Position numbers and translations under genes: made by a program. From NCBI GenBank assembly GCA_963977015.1, contig CAXBMO010000001.1:288001-352000 (forward strand): DNA of 64,000 nucleotides, given 5' to 3'. The notes under the pieces were generated by a model. It worked only from the letters and a program-made list of their open reading frames with translations. It did no database searches and was not told the DNA's origin. Origin of the DNA: an uncultured bacterium (GTDB taxonomy: Bacteria > Verrucomicrobiota > Verrucomicrobiia > Verrucomicrobiales > DEV007). Shown piece after piece: positions 765-54,447 of the stretch (its first letter is position 1; every line of letters starts with the position of its first letter).

Positions 765-2708
765 AAGATCGGCGTGACGTCGGGCGACTCGGAATTTTAC
801 GGCAACGGATTCCGCTTCGTTGAGGATCATCGTTCCCGCTGGATCCTCGCTCTCGGCGCAAGCTTTTGCGAACTCCAGGCGAACGCACTGATCTGGCGCG
901 ATCCGTTTTCGCAACTCAACCGCAAGCCGCCCCATGGTGTATCGCGGATTGATTTCCACGATCGGTTTGAGCGCGAGGGCCTCCTTCCGATCTCGATAAA
1001 CCAGGGCATCAACGCCGATGGGGCCCAGGTAGCCGATGGCTTCCAGCTTTGATTCCAGAAAATCGCGCAGTTCGCGACCATAAAGCGGAAAGGCGAATTG
1101 ACCGAGGAAACGCGCCAATTCTGGCGGCAAAGCCTGGCACGGCTTTGGTCCGCATTGCGCGGCGAGAAACTGGCCCCGCAGATTGTTCTCCAAACGCACG
1201 AAATCGAGCTTCTTCAGCCCCTCGCGCGTCATCTCATACTGCACCGAAAAATCGAAAACGCGCTTGAGGCGGGGCTCAACGATCACACAGCCTTGATGTT
1301 CGATGATCTTCTCGGCCCAACGTCGTGTCGGTTCGCCTTGCCAAACGTGATTGCGCTGGCCCGATGCTCCGAACGGAGCCTTGAGCAACAGCTCGCCGGT
1401 TTTGGGGGCTTCGATCGAATCGGCATCGTCAACGATCTCGCCAATTTGCGCCGGATCGACAAAGGGAAGGGGATGCTGGCGCGCAAAATCCATCGACCAA
1501 GCCACATCGTTTGCCTTCGAATACAGGGTTCGCGTTTTCTCGTTCCAGCATTCCGCGATTCGGCGGGCGTTTTTCGGCAAATTGGGCTCCAGCTCGGCAA
1601 GCAATTCCGCACTTTGCGGGCACCAAGCCCACGGTCGCAACTCAGCAAGTTTCCGTTCCGTCAGCGTCCCGATCGCGTCCCGTTCCACAAATTCCGGTAG
1701 GGTGAATCCGTAACCTTGCAGCCGTTCGCGATGCTCCAGACTCGGCACGCGATTCATGAGGACCACGTCTTCGTGACTCGCGACGAAAGCCGCCAGGATT
1801 TCCAAATCCGCCGCCAGGTTCTCGACCGTCTTTCTCGGATGATACTCCAGCCTGGTCATTGCGTTCTCCGGATCCGGGCAAAACCAGAAAATGCGTGGCG
1901 TCCGCCCTTTCGAGCGCTGAAACAACTGCAATCGCCTCACGAAATCGGCATCGAGGCCCACTTCGAAGCGGCCATCGGTGTTGAATTCGACAGGGCTGTT
2001 TGCCTTGGCGCGACTCGGGCTGAGGGGGAAGTCGAGTTGACGTTCGAAGGCTTCCCAATCTGATTCGTCCTCCTGTTTCCAGTGCCGAAACCACTTCAGC
2101 CCGTAACTCACGTGGCTGATCTCATCGCGGTAAATCTTCTCGAGGATTCGGGCGCTCTTGAGGTCGCCGGAATCGCGGAACACCTTGGCGTAATTGCGCG
2201 AGTAATCCAGATTCGCCTGCTCAAAGGTCAGGCTCAACCGCGACACGTAATCCATCGGCGTCTCCATCGGCGCGACGGCGTTCCAGAAGAAGCCGTTCAC
2301 CGGGTAGTCGCCAAACTCGACTCCGCATTCGGCCATCCGCCGAAGGTACCACGTCGTATGATGCTGTTCTTCCCGCAACGTCTCGTAGACGCCCTCGCGA
2401 AATTCCCTGGGTGCATCTGGAAATTTCAGCAGCACCAGCGCCATCAGTTCCGTTGCCAACAGTTCATGATTGGCGAAAAAGTGGAGCAGAATTCCTCGCT
2501 GGGCTTCGTCTTCCAACGTGTGAAGCCCCGGTAACGGGGGAGGGGAGTCTTTGCGATCAAATCGCAGCGCCTCAGGTCGCTCCGGATGTTCGGGAAGCTT
2601 GATTGCCGGACCGGGCGCCTCGTCGGAAATTGCCGTGCCCGGTCGTGCCAACTTCGCTTCGAGCGAGTCAGCAAACAGGATCGATTCGGCGAATTCGCGC
2701 AATTCCAT
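723..2708 (-). CDS. DUF455-family ferritin-like (diiron) domain fused to a C-terminal ATP-grasp-like domain
   Basis: N-terminal half has 'HFFANHELLATE', 'EEQHH', 'FEQANLD' and 'RDEISHV' (ExxH carboxylate ligands). C-terminal half has 'LLKAPFGASGQ', 'VIVEP', 'GPIGVDALVY' and 'IVEINPRYTMG' (ATP-grasp-type signatures). Confidence 0.8.
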   Translation of the reverse strand: MELREFAESILFADSLEAKLARPGTAISDEAPGPAIKLPEHPERPEALRFDRKDSPPPLPGLHTLEDEAQRGILLHFFANHELLATELMALVLLKFPDAPREFREGVYETLREEQHHTTWYLRRMAECGVEFGDYPVNGFFWNAVAPMETPMDYVSRLSLTFEQANLDYSRNYAKVFRDSGDLKSARILEKIYRDEISHVSYGLKWFRHWKQEDESDWEAFERQLDFPLSPSRAKANSPVEFNTDGRFEVGLDADFVRRLQLFQRSKGRTPRIFWFCPDPENAMTRLEYHPRKTVENLAADLEILAAFVASHEDVVLMNRVPSLEHRERLQGYGFTLPEFVERDAIGTLTERKLAELRPWAWCPQSAELLAELEPNLPKNARRIAECWNEKTRTLYSKANDVAWSMDFARQHPLPFVDPAQIGEIVDDADSIEAPKTGELLLKAPFGASGQRNHVWQGEPTRRWAEKIIEHQGCVIVEPRLKRVFDFSVQYEMTREGLKKLDFVRLENNLRGQFLAAQCGPKPCQALPPELARFLGQFAFPLYGRELRDFLESKLEAIGYLGPIGVDALVYRDRKEALALKPIVEINPRYTMGRLAVELRKRIAPDQCVRLEFAKACAESEDPAGTMILNEAESVAVKFRVARRHADLLNDGGSTQRVGGS

Positions 2709-49376: not shown

Positions 49377-50750
49377 TCAACTCAAGATCGGGCGGATGAT
49401 TTTTCCAAAGACATCCGTCAGCCTGAAATCGCGTCCATTGTGAGGAAAAGTCAACTCTTCATGATCAAATCCAAGGAGATGAAGAATCGTGGCATGCAGG
49501 TCGTGAACATGGACTTTTTTCTCTTCCGCGCGGTAGCCGAATTCGTCGGTTGAACCATAGGCCATGCCGGTCCGGATTCCGCCTCCGGCCAACCACATGG
49601 TGAAGCCAAACGGATTGTGGTCACGCCCATCACTGCCCTGCTGGGTTGGTAACCGTCCAAACTCTCCACCCCAGACAACGAGCGTTCGTTCGAGCAGCCC
49701 GCGTTGCTTCAAATCCGTCAATAACGCGGCGATGGGCTGATCGGTCTGGGCACACTGCCGGGTGTGGTTCTCCTTCAACTTTGAGTGCGCATCCCAAGCC
49801 GTCGGTCCGCGATTGCCGCCGCTGTATACCTGGACGAATCGAACGCCGCGCTCCACCATGCGCCGGGCCAGGAGACAGTTCCGGCCAAAATAACGGGTCG
49901 TTTCCTGATCGAGTCCATAGGCGCTTTGCGTCGCTTCGCTCTCCCTGCTGAGATCGGTCACCTCCGGGGCGTGAACCTGCATCCGATACGCCAGTTCATA
50001 CGATTCAATGCGCGCTTCCAGTGCGGTTTGCGCCGGATTTTGCACTGCGTAGTCGCGGTTCCACCGGTTCAGCAGATCGAGCCGGGCGCGTTGATCGTTC
50101 ATCGTCACCCCCTTGGCCAAACCCAGATTCGCGATCGGCGGACCGGAAGATCGAAACGGGATTCCCTGAAACTGAGCCGGCATGAAACCGTTCGACCAAT
50201 TCATCGCGCCATTCACTGGCGCGCCTTCTTTGTCGAGCAGCACCACATAGCCTGGCAAATTCCGATTCGCGCTTCCCAGGCCATACGTGATCCATGATCC
50301 CAGGGAAGGATGCCCCGGAAGGACGAAGCCCGAATTCATCTGGCTCAATGCCGGACCGTGATTGTTCGAGTCCGCATGCATCGAGCGAATCACGCAAAGA
50401 TCATCCACGTGCTTCGCCACATTCGGATACAGCTCGGAAACCGGCAGTCCCGACTCGCCATGACGGCTGAATTCCCAGGGACTCGGCATCGCCGTCGGCT
50501 TGGTCTGTCCCATGAAAAAGCCATCGCCTTTCCGGTAGGCCGGAATCGCCTTGCCCGCCCACGTCTCCAACGCCGGTTTCGGATCAAACGTATCCACTTG
50601 GCTCGGCCCGCCATACATGAAGAGAAAGATGACCGAGTCGATCTTGGACGCGAAGTGCGGCTTCCCTTCATGGGCCAACAACGAGTTCGCCGCCAAAGCG
50701 CCAAATCCGGCACCAGTGGATTTCAGGAAATGTCTGCGATGAAAGGGCAT
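49377..50750 (-). CDS. DUF1501 family protein (Tat-like RR signal)
   Basis: 'RRHFLK', 'FMYGGPSQVDTFDPKP', 'LLARRMVERGVRFV', 'WDAH', 'GEFGRLP' and 'GRDH'. Confidence 0.92.
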   Translation of the reverse strand: MPFHRRHFLKSTGAGFGALAANSLLAHEGKPHFASKIDSVIFLFMYGGPSQVDTFDPKPALETWAGKAIPAYRKGDGFFMGQTKPTAMPSPWEFSRHGESGLPVSELYPNVAKHVDDLCVIRSMHADSNNHGPALSQMNSGFVLPGHPSLGSWITYGLGSANRNLPGYVVLLDKEGAPVNGAMNWSNGFMPAQFQGIPFRSSGPPIANLGLAKGVTMNDQRARLDLLNRWNRDYAVQNPAQTALEARIESYELAYRMQVHAPEVTDLSRESEATQSAYGLDQETTRYFGRNCLLARRMVERGVRFVQVYSGGNRGPTAWDAHSKLKENHTRQCAQTDQPIAALLTDLKQRGLLERTLVVWGGEFGRLPTQQGSDGRDHNPFGFTMWLAGGGIRTGMAYGSTDEFGYRAEEKKVHVHDLHATILHLLGFDHEELTFPHNGRDFRLTDVFGKIIRPILS

Positions 50751-50871
50751 AGCGATAGGGGCGTTCAATCAGTTTCAGCAGCCGTCACACGGGTTTCAAC
50801 CGGTTTTCCATGCACAATTGTAAGAGAACAAGCTGGATGCTCATCGGACTCATGCCTAGAATCCCATCATC

Positions 50872-51015
50872 GTGGGAGACGTGAAGAGTTTCATCAGCTA
50901 TCGGCGGGACGACGCCATTGTCGTGGGCAATGTGGACCGCATCTACGAGCAACTCAGCACCCGGTTCGGTGGGGATAGCGTGGGCGTCGCCACGATTTCC
51001 CGGACCAGCACATTC
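50872..51015 (+). pseudogene. Truncated TIR-domain gene (N-terminal fragment only)
   Basis: 'KSFISYRRDD......DRIYEQLSTRFGGDSV' matches the start of bacterial TIR domains; similarity stops just before the repeat at 51016. Confidence 0.7.
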
Positions 51016-51061
51016 GGTCTCCACCGGGGCTTGTCCCCGTGGAACCCCGATCAACAACAGA
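51016..51061 (+). repeat. Left inverted repeat with REP-like hairpin CCAC(C)GGGG-CTTGT-CCCCGTGG
   Basis: GGTCTCCACCGGGGCTTGTCCCCGTGGAACCCCGATCAACAACAGA versus the reverse complement of 51971-52016: 6 mismatches. Confidence 0.88.
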
Positions 51062-51113
51062 ACCTTCCCCCCAATAAAAAGGACGCCACCTTCGGGCTTG
51101 CCCCGAAGGTGCG

Positions 51114-51938
51114 ATGACCCGACCTGAGCCTATGGCCAACCGCGAACCCATCTACACCGCGGAAAACTGTCGCTTTTCCCATCCGCTCAATTGGAGTCTG
51201 AGTGTATTTTGGCGGGAATCCTGTAATGACGACCATTGGTTACCCGATCTCGTAGAAGCCACCGAACCCGATGGCCTCCGGATCAAATCCCACCGGTTTA
51301 CGGAAACCGGGGCCAGCCAGTTTTGGGTTTCGTCCTCGCCCGAGGTCGCGCCAGTCACGATCGTTCAAAGGGTCAAAGGCAGACTCCAGCACCTGGTTCG
51401 GTCCGATCGTCCCAAGGCCCTCAAACGCAATTTCTCGCTGCATGGTTTCGGGAAGGTCAGCCGCGAGGTGGTTCAGAACTACGTCTCCGATCAACTCGGC
51501 CACCATCAAATGGCCGACCCGGGAGTCCAGAAGCGATTGCAAACCTATCAGATCTCTCATCCTGAGATCGACCTCGCTCAACCCCAACGAACCTCTCACG
51601 GATTGTTCTCGTATTCGCTGCACTTGGTGTTGGTGCACTAGGGGCGTACCAACACTATCAACGATGATGTTCTGAGGAAAGTGAGCCGGATGATCGAGCA
51701 GTCGTCCCAGGCCAAAGGATACTTGCTCGCTGAAGCGGGAATCCTTCCCGACCACGTTCATATCCTGGCTGGTTGTCCCTTCGCGCAATCGCCTCTGGAG
51801 GTGGCGCTGGGGTTTCTGAACAACCTTGCGTTCGCGCATGGGATGAAACCCGTCTTTCAGTTTGGCGGGTTTCTGGGAACGGTCGGCGAATACACGTTCA
51901 ACGCGGTTCAGGAAGGCGTCAGCGCTCAACCGGGGTGA
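51114..51938 (+). pseudogene. Tandem two-domain Y1 (HUH) transposase-like gene with one in-frame TAG at 51639-51641
   Basis: ORFs 51114-51641 and 51681-51938 share a frame and read HLVLVH*GRTNTINDDVLRKVSR across the gap; motifs 'VQRVKG', 'NYVSDQ' and 'PDHVHIL'. Confidence 0.8.
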
Positions 51939-51970
51939 ACCCGGTTGGGGCGAGAGATCTGGGGATCGGG

Positions 51971-52016
51971 TCTGTTGTTGATCTTGGTTCCACGGGGGCG
52001 AGCCCCTGTGGTGACC
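51971..52016 (-). repeat. Right inverted repeat with REP-like hairpin
   Basis: Reverse complement reads GGTCACCACAGGGGCTCGCCCCCGTGGAACCAAGATCAACAACAGA. Confidence 0.88.
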
Positions 52017-52258
52017 AGTTCGAAGACGGGACTAACAAAACCCCGCTTTGAATCGCGCTTTGGCATTTTCTCCGCGTGGGCGTGATCTCACCCACGTCCG
52101 GCAAATGAGCAAGTTTGGAGAATCTCGCCACCGAAAAGGAGTGCATGAAACGGATGGATGGGCGAAACGGGGCTTAAAGCTCCGAAACGCAAAGCCCGGG
52201 CGATCACGCCTGGGCAACGTCAGGCCGCTCTTGTTTTGGGGGCCGCAAGCGTGAATCG

Positions 52259-54106
52259 TCAATCCACATAGACAAACTGGCTGGAGTTGAACAGAACCAC
52301 GGCGAGATCGGCGAGGGCGAGCTTCCGGGCGTCCTTTTGGGATTGACGTGATGCCAGGCGTTCGGCAACGAAGGCTTCCGCTCCGGCGAGTTGATCCGCA
52401 GAAACCGGCTGCGCCCAAACCCGCTCCATCATGGAACGAACGGCATTCCCGGGATCCTCGGCCATGGCGCGAAGTGCGAGATAGCGCGCCTGCTTGTTGA
52501 CGAATTCGTCGTTGAGCAGGGCGAGGGCCTGGGTTGGCGTGGTGCTGGAGAAGCGGACCGCGCAACTGAGCGTGGCGTCGGGCGCGTCGAAGAGCGTGAG
52601 CATGGGCATCGGCAACTGGCGCTTGAGATAGACGTAGACGCTGCGGCGCCAGTGTTGCGGCGATTCCTGTTCGATTTTGGGCCAACCGTTCCGTTTGCTT
52701 TGATCGAGGATTTCAGGCGGAACGCGGGGCTTGATGCCCGGACCGCCCATTTTCAGATTCAAGTTTCCGCTCGCGGCGAGGATGCCATCTCGGATGACTT
52801 CAGCCTGGAGGCGATGCGGTGGGTAGCGCCACAATTTCCGGTTCTCCGGATCGGTCCGGGCGGCGGATTCTCGAAACACGGAGTCCTGCTGATAAGTTCG
52901 GGATAGGACAATCCGTTTGTGAAGCGGCTTGAGGCGGCCGCCGTTGTCGCGCAGTTCGCAGGCCAGCCAATCCAGCAGTTCCGGATGCGTCGGACGCGAG
53001 CCGCTCTCGCCGAGATTACTGGGCGTATCGACCAGGCCGTGTCCAAAGTGATATTGCCAAACCCGGTTTGCCATGACTCGCCAGGTCAGTGGGTTTTCGG
53101 GCGATGCAATCCAATCCGCGAGCGCCGTGCGGCTTCCTCCGGCAAACTCAGCCGCAAAATGGCTGAGCACTTCGGGCACGCCGGGTGCCACGATTTCCCC
53201 CGGGGTTTGGGGATTGCCGCGGAGGAGGACTCGCGTTACCTCCGGTTTTTCAGATCCATTCGTGAGTGCGCGAATGTGAGGCTCTTTCGACAGTTTGTTT
53301 TTTGCCCGGGGGCGGGGCGGGATCAGCGTCGGTGTGCTGAGCTGTTGATTCTTGAACGGCACGTAGGCGGGAACCGTGGGGGCAAAAACCGCAAGCATTT
53401 GGTAGTAGTCGGTCGCGGTGAAGGGCTCGGTTTTATGGTCGTGACATCGCGCGCATTGAATCGTCTGACCGAGAAAAACCTGGGACGTTGTCGCGAGGAT
53501 GTCGTCCAGTTGATCGAGCTTGTAGAGTTCCAGTTCGTTCGATGCGATGTTCTCCTCGTTGGAGGGACCATTTCGGCAAAAGCCGGTCGCGATCCAGGCC
53601 TCCGGGTTTGTCGGGGCGATCTCGTCGCCGGCCAGTTGCTCGCGAAGAAACTGCCCATACGGTTTGTCGGCGTTGAAGCTGGCGATGACATAATCGCGAT
53701 ACCGCCAGGCATGGGGCCGGTCGCTGTCCTCGTGCAGGCCGTTGGAATCCGCGTAGCGCGCGAGGTCCAGCCAATGCCGTCCCCAGCGTTCGCCATATTG
53801 CGGGCGCGAGAGCAAGTCATCGACGATCGCCTCAAACCGTTCCGGTGACGGGTCCTCGGCAAATTCCGTTGATTCCTCGGGAGTGGGAGGCAGCCCGGTC
53901 AAGTCGAGAAAGATCCGGCGAAGAAGTCGATGAGGTTGGGCTGGTGGCGAAGGTTCCAGGTTTGCCGCGCGCAATTCCTGCTCAATGAACTGATCCACGC
54001 TTTCGCCGTCAGGACGGTTCAAAGGCTCGAAAGCCCAGTGTCCTTCCTCGCCAAAACTGAAGGCGACTGAACCTAGGTACAGACAAAGAAAGTGGTGGGG
54101 TTTCAC
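52259..54106 (-). CDS. DUF1549/DUF1553 (PSD1) domain protein
   Basis: 'HWAF', 'YGERWGRHWLDLARYADS', 'CARCHDHK', 'NPLTWRVMANRVWQYHFG', 'PTHPELLDWLA' and 'RRSVY'. GTG start at 54106 is tentative. Confidence 0.9.
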   Translation of the reverse strand: MKPHHFLCLYLGSVAFSFGEEGHWAFEPLNRPDGESVDQFIEQELRAANLEPSPPAQPHRLLRRIFLDLTGLPPTPEESTEFAEDPSPERFEAIVDDLLSRPQYGERWGRHWLDLARYADSNGLHEDSDRPHAWRYRDYVIASFNADKPYGQFLREQLAGDEIAPTNPEAWIATGFCRNGPSNEENIASNELELYKLDQLDDILATTSQVFLGQTIQCARCHDHKTEPFTATDYYQMLAVFAPTVPAYVPFKNQQLSTPTLIPPRPRAKNKLSKEPHIRALTNGSEKPEVTRVLLRGNPQTPGEIVAPGVPEVLSHFAAEFAGGSRTALADWIASPENPLTWRVMANRVWQYHFGHGLVDTPSNLGESGSRPTHPELLDWLACELRDNGGRLKPLHKRIVLSRTYQQDSVFRESAARTDPENRKLWRYPPHRLQAEVIRDGILAASGNLNLKMGGPGIKPRVPPEILDQSKRNGWPKIEQESPQHWRRSVYVYLKRQLPMPMLTLFDAPDATLSCAVRFSSTTPTQALALLNDEFVNKQARYLALRAMAEDPGNAVRSMMERVWAQPVSADQLAGAEAFVAERLASRQSQKDARKLALADLAVVLFNSSQFVYVD

Positions 54107-54447
54107 AATCGGGAAAGGAGTCGCGGAACCCGACGGCAAGCAAGGATAAAATTGAATGACAGACCACGTCGCGCGAGCGCGCAACGATCGGAGATTGGCC
54201 CAAAACGCAGGCTGGTGCGGTGACCGGCGTTAGCTGGACAAGTAATTGAACTCGGTGAAAATCAGGGGATTGGTGGTGCCGGAGACGAAGCGGGATAAGG
54301 AAAAGTCGCAGAAATGACAAGCCTCTTCGAGAAAGCTGCCGCCAAATCGGGACGCTCAAAAATGTCAGCGGCAACAGAGGGCAAATTGATGCGATTTTGC
54401 TTCATTAGTAATTGTGGTTTTTATAAGATGAGGGACTGTTAAGGACA

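Follow-up and report, generated by a model that had tools for sequence, protein, structure and literature searches.

Transposition in the IS200/IS605 family is explained by two equal active sites in a homodimer of the transposase TnpA, with tyrosine helices swapping between the subunits, and the ends of IS608 and other IS200/IS605 elements are distinct on the left and the right, are read on one strand and have no terminal inverted repeats. The E. coli protein RAYT, or TnpA-REP (PDB 4er8), is a single-site Y1 HUH enzyme whose one site can both cleave and rejoin (Messing 2012, PMC3479197). Inverted flanking hairpins, often in arrays, make up the REPtron layout (Di Nocera 2013; Quentin 2018, PMC6006769), and class 3 TnpA-Y1 proteins of Planctomycetes and Acidobacteria, with several atypical flanking hairpins, were described as "intermediate between IS and REPtron" (Quentin 2018, PMC6006769). 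Here we analyzed a transposase gene at positions 51114-51938 (+) of a 64,000-nucleotide stretch of DNA from an uncultured bacterium of the Verrucomicrobiota (contig CAXBMO010000001.1; the whole stretch is called the window), together with the hairpin-ended element that carries it and the family to which its product belongs.

The genome holding the window (G000; 6.9 Mb, 51 contigs, 95% complete) has a second copy of this gene. We consider it likely that the window locus is one of two nonsense-interrupted copies of a ~1.1-kb hairpin-ended element, whose sole gene encodes a fused protein of ~265 residues with two Y1 domains joined head to tail and a single composite trans site, the window copy itself being most likely inactive. 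Because domain 1 has lost the His-x-His motif and kept the Tyr-Gln helix, while domain 2 shows the reverse, the chain would hold one "trans" site. Unlike the IS200/IS605 TnpA homodimer with its two sites, a member of this family would be one chain with one composite site.

A preliminary description of this DNA had reported about 274 codons read through one TAG, and we found exactly such a frame at 51114-51938 (+), with 274 codons followed by TGA and one in-frame TAG at 51639-51641 (codon 176). The strings quoted in that description are all present, namely GASQF, IVQRVKG...VSREVVQNYVSDQ, YSLHLVLVH followed by the TAG, ILPDHVHIL and FQFGGFLGTVGEY. The start codon is uncertain, since ATG 51132 (M7) matches the N-termini of homologues about equally well as ATG 51114. 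An intact homologue of 266 aa (P0003), 72% identical to the window protein, was used for numbering; beyond residue ~50, P0003 positions are converted to those of the window protein by adding 8. The features of the gene are as follows.

51114-51638, + strand: frame part 1, 175 codons, covering domain 1, the linker and strand 1 of domain 2
51114-51557, + strand: domain 1 (residues 1-148), Y1 fold without HUH
51315-51323, + strand: position of the HUH in domain 1, occupied by S68-Q69-F70, within GASQF
51480-51494, + strand: Tyr helix of domain 1, Y123-V-S-D-Q127, then HH (Y123 at 51480-51482, Q127 at 51492-51494)
51532-51769, + strand: 238-nt stretch identical between both genome copies and containing the TAG, likely a gene-conversion tract
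51558-51935, + strand: domain 2 (residues 149-274), Y1 fold, no Y-x3-Q helix
51639-51641, + strand: in-frame TAG (codon 176), in the loop behind the first strand of domain 2
51642-51938, + strand: frame part 2, frame unchanged, ending with TGA at 51936-51938
51750-51761, + strand: D213-H214-V-H216 of domain 2, within ILPDHVHIL
51888-51893, + strand: conserved E259-Y260 of domain 2, equal to E251-Y252 of P0003

To the Pfam model Y1_Tnp (PF01797, cutoff 23), half 2 read through the TAG matched with 32.7 bits (E 9.4e-8), over profile positions 3-67 only, and the intact P0003 with 43.2 bits, whereas half 1 reached 14.3 bits (E 0.047, profile 56-121). Of the two half-by-half comparisons suggested in the preliminary description, that of half 2 was therefore above the cutoff and that of half 1 below it. 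The Y1 fold of half 1 was supported by other comparisons. A profile of 80 half-1 sequences (A4) matched the IS200 TnpA structures 2f4f_A (E 8.5e-6) and 2ec2_A (E 2.2e-5), and its alignment to 2f4f_A pairs "s-q-f" with H-I-H and "YvasQ" with YIEEQ. When domain 1 was folded alone (predicted local distance difference test, pLDDT, 87.1), Foldseek ranks 1-26 were all TnpA of IS608, ISDra2 or IS200 with TM scores of 0.5-0.67 and E below 1e-3, 28 matches reaching E<=1e-3.

The AlphaFold model of P0003, made with a 119-row alignment, is one compact body (pLDDT 94.0; predicted TM score, pTM, 0.90) in which the order beta-alpha-beta-beta-alpha-beta-alpha occurs twice. Against the IS200, ISDra2 and IS608 transposases, residues ~147-263 reach Z 8.0-10.1 in the 15 top rows, followed by a row at Z 7.2, and RAYT 4er8 matches the model at Z 5.1. 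Both family domains thus have the same fold as IS200/IS605 TnpA (IS608, ISDra2, IS200; PDB 2vju, 2xma, 2f4f, 2ec2). The top Foldseek rows of the whole model, BMC-T and designed cages (TM 0.22-0.31, root-mean-square deviation ~17), were rejected as tandem-ferredoxin look-alikes. Among the NCBIfam models, the best for the window protein is transpos_IS200 (NF033573, equivalog), with 48.5 bits for the window protein and 48.4 for P0003, in two stretches each; both stay below the cutoff of 55, and a 35%-identical paralogue (L006) scores 67 bits. REP_Tyr_transpos (NF047646, cutoff 80) gave 13.7-16.7 bits, the window protein having 13.7, and together with the Z of 5.1 this is a weak fit to RAYT.

The order of the partial Pfam matches, profile 56-121 and then 3-67, could also be produced if a rearrangement had joined the C-terminal half of one tnpA to the N-terminal half of another. 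Residues 1-70 and 230-260, however, fold into the missing domain halves, so that both domains are complete, and the full-length layout is kept in hundreds of proteins down to ~30% identity; such an artefact is refuted by these data and retains practically no probability.

The catalytic motifs were then counted across the family in P0003 numbering, for 119 close members (alignment A3) and 262 wider members.

S60 / Q61 / F62 (HUH site of domain 1): 112 / 119 / 112 of 119 close members; 190 / 227 / 213 of 262 wider members
Y115: 117 of 119; 256 of 262
Q119: 119 of 119; 258 of 262
H122 / H123: 110 / 114 of 119; 198 / 224 of 262
D205 / H206 / H208: 118 / 118 / 119 of 119; 249 / 260 / 257 of 262
E251 / Y252: 116 / 119 of 119; 219 / 244 of 262

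A Y-x3/4-Q motif was found in none of 202 C-terminal tails of domain 2 from the wider set, and at the domain-1 HUH site a single His (position 60) occurs in 2 of 262 and a complete HUH never. The reciprocal loss of motifs proposed for the homologues is therefore general in the family, and no intermediate forms between the motif layouts were found among the 262 wider members. The family resembles IS200/IS605 TnpA in its HUH, its Y-x3-Q, its conserved His in the first strand and the hairpin-bearing ends of its elements. The TnpA arrangement of HUH and catalytic Tyr helix within one domain of ~130-150 aa, giving two equal sites per dimer, is replaced here by motifs split between the domains. The dead half-site has not decayed, as Q61, D47, K80 and R82 of domain 1 are invariant in the 119 sequences and E251-Y252 of domain 2 almost so, and this conservation suggests a second function, perhaps DNA binding.

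The packing of the two domains was assessed by mean-field direct coupling analysis (DCA) of 262 sequences (effective number, Meff, 215), of which the top 266 pairs were evaluated. The top-ranked pairs within domains are the expected strand pairings (e.g., 210-249, 23-64, 27-60 and 25-95). Between the Tyr helix of domain 1 (112-123) and the sheet of domain 2, 9 of 432 pairs are in the top 266 (expected 3.4, p 0.007), compared with 0 of 408 pairs between this helix and its own sheet; the 9 include 116-210, 121-204 and 122-203, which flank the HUH at 206-208. Likewise, the C-terminal segment of domain 2 (251-258) has 6 of 272 pairs with the sheet of domain 1 (expected 2.1, p 0.02) and 0 of 278 with its own, and the pairs 15-244 (rank 7) and 102-158 (rank 8) link one domain's last strand with the first strands of its partner, in both directions. 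The interface of the IS608 dimer is made of a swapped alpha-D helix and of bonding from last strand to first strand (Messing 2012, PMC3479197). Our covariation gives modest, indirect support to a similar placement of the C-terminal helix of each domain on the sheet of the other, and suggests that Y115 and Q119 lie in trans over the HUH of domain 2. The likeness to the obligate IS200/IS605 dimer, with its swapped helix and sheet-to-sheet packing, is thus seen by covariation only; a structure prediction of two copies of the intact homologue scored 0.00, which says nothing either way on pseudo-dimer pairing. The covalent heterodimer with one composite active site that was put forward in the preliminary description agrees with the two Y1 domains, the reciprocal loss and the covariation that puts the Tyr helix on the domain-2 sheet; the window copy itself, however, is most likely a pseudogene (see below).

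The same couplings bear on a two-tyrosine enzyme, in which the Tyr behind the last strand of domain 2 (Y252; Y260 in the window) would be a second nucleophile. Y252 is kept in 119 and E251 in 116 of the 119 close members, and covariation sets the E251-Y252 segment on the domain-1 pseudo-site, which has the invariant Q61. That site, however, has no His pair for a metal, and in the wider set Y252 is present in only 244 of 262 and is replaced by F in 8, three of which (L075, L083 and L086) come from loci without an internal stop. Given that the replacement occurs in intact loci, a packing role is favoured over a catalytic one; aromatic packing fits better, and we regard a second nucleophile as very improbable.

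The second copy of the gene in G000 lies at C8:157321-158127 and encodes a protein 92% identical to that of the window, with the same TAG. The two open reading frames (ORFs) have 62 differences over 825 nt (7.5%) and none within 51532-51769 (238 nt, with the TAG inside), a block that is not expected by chance at 7.5% divergence and looks like a recent gene-conversion tract. Outside this block the ratio of nonsynonymous to synonymous substitution rates (dN/dS) between the copies is 0.18, and in domain 1 it is 0.15 with a dS of 0.41; because of the value of 0.18, most of the divergence of the two copies must have arisen under selection on the gene. Full-length, stop-free homologues are present in two genomes of the same genus (72-77% identity), relatives carry TCG, CGG or CAA in place of the TAG codon, and the corresponding alignment column in the 119 close members is mostly R (67) or Q (22).

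Locus-level counts rest on 80 loci kept from 352 stretches of species-representative genomes that encode a relative. Internal stops are absent from 77 of these 80 loci of other species, and three loci (L024, L076 and L077) have one each, at differing positions; five further apparent stops at positions 258-261 are natural gene ends. None of the 80 has a stop at the TAG column, by which a conserved or programmed stop was ruled out, and a suppressor or pyrrolysine (Pyl) tRNA was not found by ARAGORN among 60 tRNAs of the 95% complete genome. Since the nonsense codon that interrupts the frame is lacking in relatives, the window copy is most likely a pseudogene, and the same most likely holds for both G000 copies.

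Were the window gene still functional, with the TAG read through or tolerated and both copies live, one would understand that the frame stays open on either side of the TAG in both copies and that their dN/dS is low overall and in domain 1. This is opposed by the sense codons at the TAG position in relatives, by the lack of a stop at that column in all 80 loci and by the outcome of the tRNA search. The TAG also lies inside the difference-free block, as in a recent conversion tract, and a split at this point would sever domain 2 behind its first strand. A live window gene is, in our judgement, quite unlikely.

The fused layout is widespread. A word-indexed search gave at least 284 proteins at E<=1e-3 among 663 candidates, and among the 120 matches listed nearly all have 242-338 aa and 84-99% query coverage, with three short ones (169, 181 and 210 aa). 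When 50%-identity representatives were searched exhaustively, the matching clusters numbered 588 at E<=1e-3, 352 at 1e-10 and 98 at 1e-30. The labels of the 80 kept loci are Planctomycetota groups (68), Verrucomicrobiota (6, including the three nearest), Acidobacteriota (2), Chitinophaga (2), Nitrospinia (1) and Sumerlaeota (1), and the neighbours in the ESM Atlas are clusters of ~270 aa named "Transposase IS200 like", mostly of Planctomycetota. Among the relatives of G000 the gene is present in 2 of 40, both of the same genus. Where database names are given, they are "REP element-mobilizing transposase RayT", "transposase", "putative transposase" or "hypothetical protein", and many members are called RayT by JGI.

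The element around the window gene has the following further features.

50899-52027, no strand: shared repeated unit, 90% identical to G000:C8:157229-158364 (blastn of window 50851-52150, query 49-1177)
50872-51117, + strand: 81-codon ORF, whose 3' part crosses the left-end hairpins
51016-51071, + strand: left outer inverted-repeat arm, 56 nt, with the hairpin foot at 51014-51050
51084-51113, + strand: left inner hairpin, which stops directly before ATG 51114
51927-51947, + strand: right inner hairpin, whose loop holds the stop codon
51961-52016, + strand: right outer inverted-repeat arm, with a hairpin at 51985-52017

Its outer ends are thus 56-nt inverted arms, 82% complementary to one another, and each end has two hairpins (single-stranded DNA fold z -4.7 on the left and -2.9 on the right), with 0 of 200 shuffles as stable at either end. 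Subterminal hairpins at both ends, a feature of IS200/IS605 elements, are accordingly present. The preliminary description had expected asymmetric, one-ended cleavage at the flanking hairpins; because the ends are symmetric inverted repeats, nothing here points that way.

Six gene-less derivatives of ~300 bp, resembling miniature inverted-repeat transposable elements (MITEs), were found elsewhere in G000, outside the window.

G000:C1:557266-557565
G000:C8:29142-29452
G000:C10:5911-6223
G000:C4:397670-397981
G000:C6:339912-340214
G000:C36:46391-46649

All keep both ends, with the outer and inner hairpins of each and the last gene codons but no ORF; they are 82-90% identical to one another, and their identity with the window element's ends is about 75%. 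Five other genomes have 2-4 matches each, some of them degraded. Inverted repeats upstream and downstream of the gene (350-nt flanks) scored above the best shuffle in 52 of 59 loci, and tandem arrays of units 64-86 nt long are present at 26 of the 59. Unlike those of IS608, the family ends are therefore inverted repeats of one unit on opposite strands. A conserved neighbour gene such as tnpB was not found in the 80 loci (up to 3 kb of flank per side), the largest neighbour cluster having 5 of 80; besides the NCBIfam score below the cutoff, this lack of tnpB near family genes is a difference from IS200/IS605.

The complete genome of a Schlesneria has 30 units (<=2 mismatches; 0 for a control pattern), arranged in arrays both next to the gene and at a small number of other places. 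At its locus L075 (Schlesneria sp. T3-172, about 5349174-5350837), 10 units with a 72-nt period lie on one side and three inverted units on the other, and separate arrays of 7-8 units are distant from any gene copy. In L003, from the genus of G000, a second left-end-like unit including the first gene codons lies in direct orientation downstream of the right end, at 2568-2682 (+) and 2358-2387 (-). For G000 itself we counted 7 core matches of the hairpin (<=5 mismatches) and about a dozen blastn matches, and the idea of a high-copy REP in this genome was rejected on these low counts.

Given this layout, the family might form a REPtron, in which a RAYT-like gene domesticated by the host maintains arrays of REP-like hairpins, rather than being an autonomous IS transposase, the fused architecture being unchanged. 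As with RAYT, the gene lies between inverted hairpin repeats, which are copies of one unit and often form tandem arrays. The low gene count per genome, the Schlesneria units gathered in few arrays, several of which are at a distance from the gene, and the RayT name given by JGI to many members all agree with it. On the other hand, the window protein scores 48.5 bits with transpos_IS200 (cutoff 55) against 13.7 with REP_Tyr_transpos (cutoff 80), the distribution is patchy (2 of 40 relatives), and one genome has two 92%-identical copies and six gene-less derivatives, with decayed copies too. The units moreover number in the tens, not hundreds; RAYT is a one-domain monomer with high-copy repeats, unlike the two-domain proteins studied here. 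A domesticated host gene is thus, in our view, rather unlikely, and the fused transposase of a hairpin-ended element is preferred.

In such a fused transposase, the composite site would take its nucleophile Tyr and metal-ligand Gln from the domain-1 helix and its two His from domain 2. The substrate would be units of a hairpin and a tail of ~20 nt, which are alike in form at both ends but lie on opposite strands, and at these units the enzyme would nick and rejoin single-stranded DNA. Its action would be single-site, as in monomeric RAYT and relaxases, not the two-site helix swap of IS608. An incoming 3'-OH may be joined in that same trans site, or pseudo-dimers may pair up; the former route has been demonstrated in relaxases and proposed for monomeric TnpA-REP (Messing 2012, PMC3479197). 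We infer that the protein acts most like the single-site RAYT and is built on an IS200-type dimer scaffold, with scores below both NCBIfam cutoffs.

The same single trans site, in which a subunit lacking HUH supplies the Tyr helix and one lacking the Tyr supplies the HUH, was engineered in IS608 TnpA as the H64A + Y127F heterodimer (He 2013, PMC3597680), which, unlike the fused family, is a two-chain laboratory construct. This heterodimer cleaved DNA and no strand transfer was detected, since for rejoining the helix has to move over into a functional cis site (He 2013, PMC3597680). In the fused family the cis site is SQF.

Several points weigh against a fused protein with one composite site as the product of this element. 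A single-site protein may be unable to transpose alone, and, since the H64A + Y127F construct gave no strand transfer, the natural family would have to work differently or need partners. Half 1 stays below the Pfam cutoff, and the hhalign comparison of half 1 with half 2, though in register, is not significant (E 0.23), which marks the domain duplication as an old one. The excess of covarying pairs is modest, at about 3-fold, and these pairs lie beside the invariant catalytic residues rather than involving them. The invariant Q61 in domain 1 and the almost invariant E251-Y252 in domain 2 are not explained by a single composite site. Lastly, with regard to the inactive state of the window copy, the dN/dS of 0.18 fits a recent spread of the TAG via gene conversion but would be compatible with a working gene as well.

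We further propose, tentatively and with rather more doubt than confidence, that the family is a separate class of HUH mobile element, a fused TnpA pseudo-dimer with a trans-only site and without the IS608 helix swap, which would move or amplify hairpin units of 65-85 nt by single-site nick-and-join on either strand. If true, nick-and-join on either strand would account for both the inverted ends and the tandem arrays of units. In the literature searched, largely outside subscription journals, we found no Y1 transposase described as having tandem domains or as a single-chain enzyme, and the fused layout is apparently undescribed. In the class 3 proteins, which have ~178 aa, NHVH and Y-x4-Q share a single domain, whereas the fused family has ~265 aa with DHVH and Y-x3-Q--HH over two domains and does not fit that class; the Y---Q--HH signature of the fused family is that given for subclass 1.2 in the same classification, from which "unexpectedly long proteins" were removed beforehand (Quentin 2018, PMC6006769). 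With regard to the earlier suggestion of a possibly undescribed element class, the proteins are already in databases under automatic RayT or transposase names, so the novelty lies in how their architecture is read rather than in their sequences. Those labels arise because Pfam reports only half of one domain, and routine domain annotation hides such fused cases.

The family has fixed, in hundreds of lineages, a layout of the laboratory test, with one trans site and the other dead. If its proteins are active, they would offer a natural system in which to study the completion of strand transfer by a Y1 enzyme with one site and the growth of hairpin arrays, and a single-chain, single-site, hairpin-recognising HUH enzyme could be a compact tool for tagging single-stranded DNA.

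The block common to both G000 copies (50899-52027) extends 117 nt beyond the left outer arm. An N-terminal fragment, FISYRRDD..VVGNVDRIYEQLS (window 50872-51117, +), lies immediately upstream of the left end in three places, namely in both G000 copies and in a remnant in the same-genus genome G002 (L009:1026-1124). The 81-codon ORF at 50872-51117 had no Pfam match; its first ~35 residues we take to resemble the N-terminus of a TIR-type protein, and no matching downstream remainder of a TIR-like gene was found behind the right end. The subfamily would either have captured ~117 nt of flanking DNA or insert repeatedly at a single site within a set of paralogous genes.

An antisense ORF of 229 codons (window 51240-51929, -) overlaps the transposase frame and was taken as a by-product of high G+C. 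The transposase gene is flanked by a DUF1501 gene (49377-50768, -; 534.6 bits) and a PSCyt2/PSD1 (DUF1549/DUF1553) gene (52259-54184, -), and the element occupies the 1.5-kb gap between them. Such genes are usually adjacent, and the insertion of the element between them may have split a gene pair.

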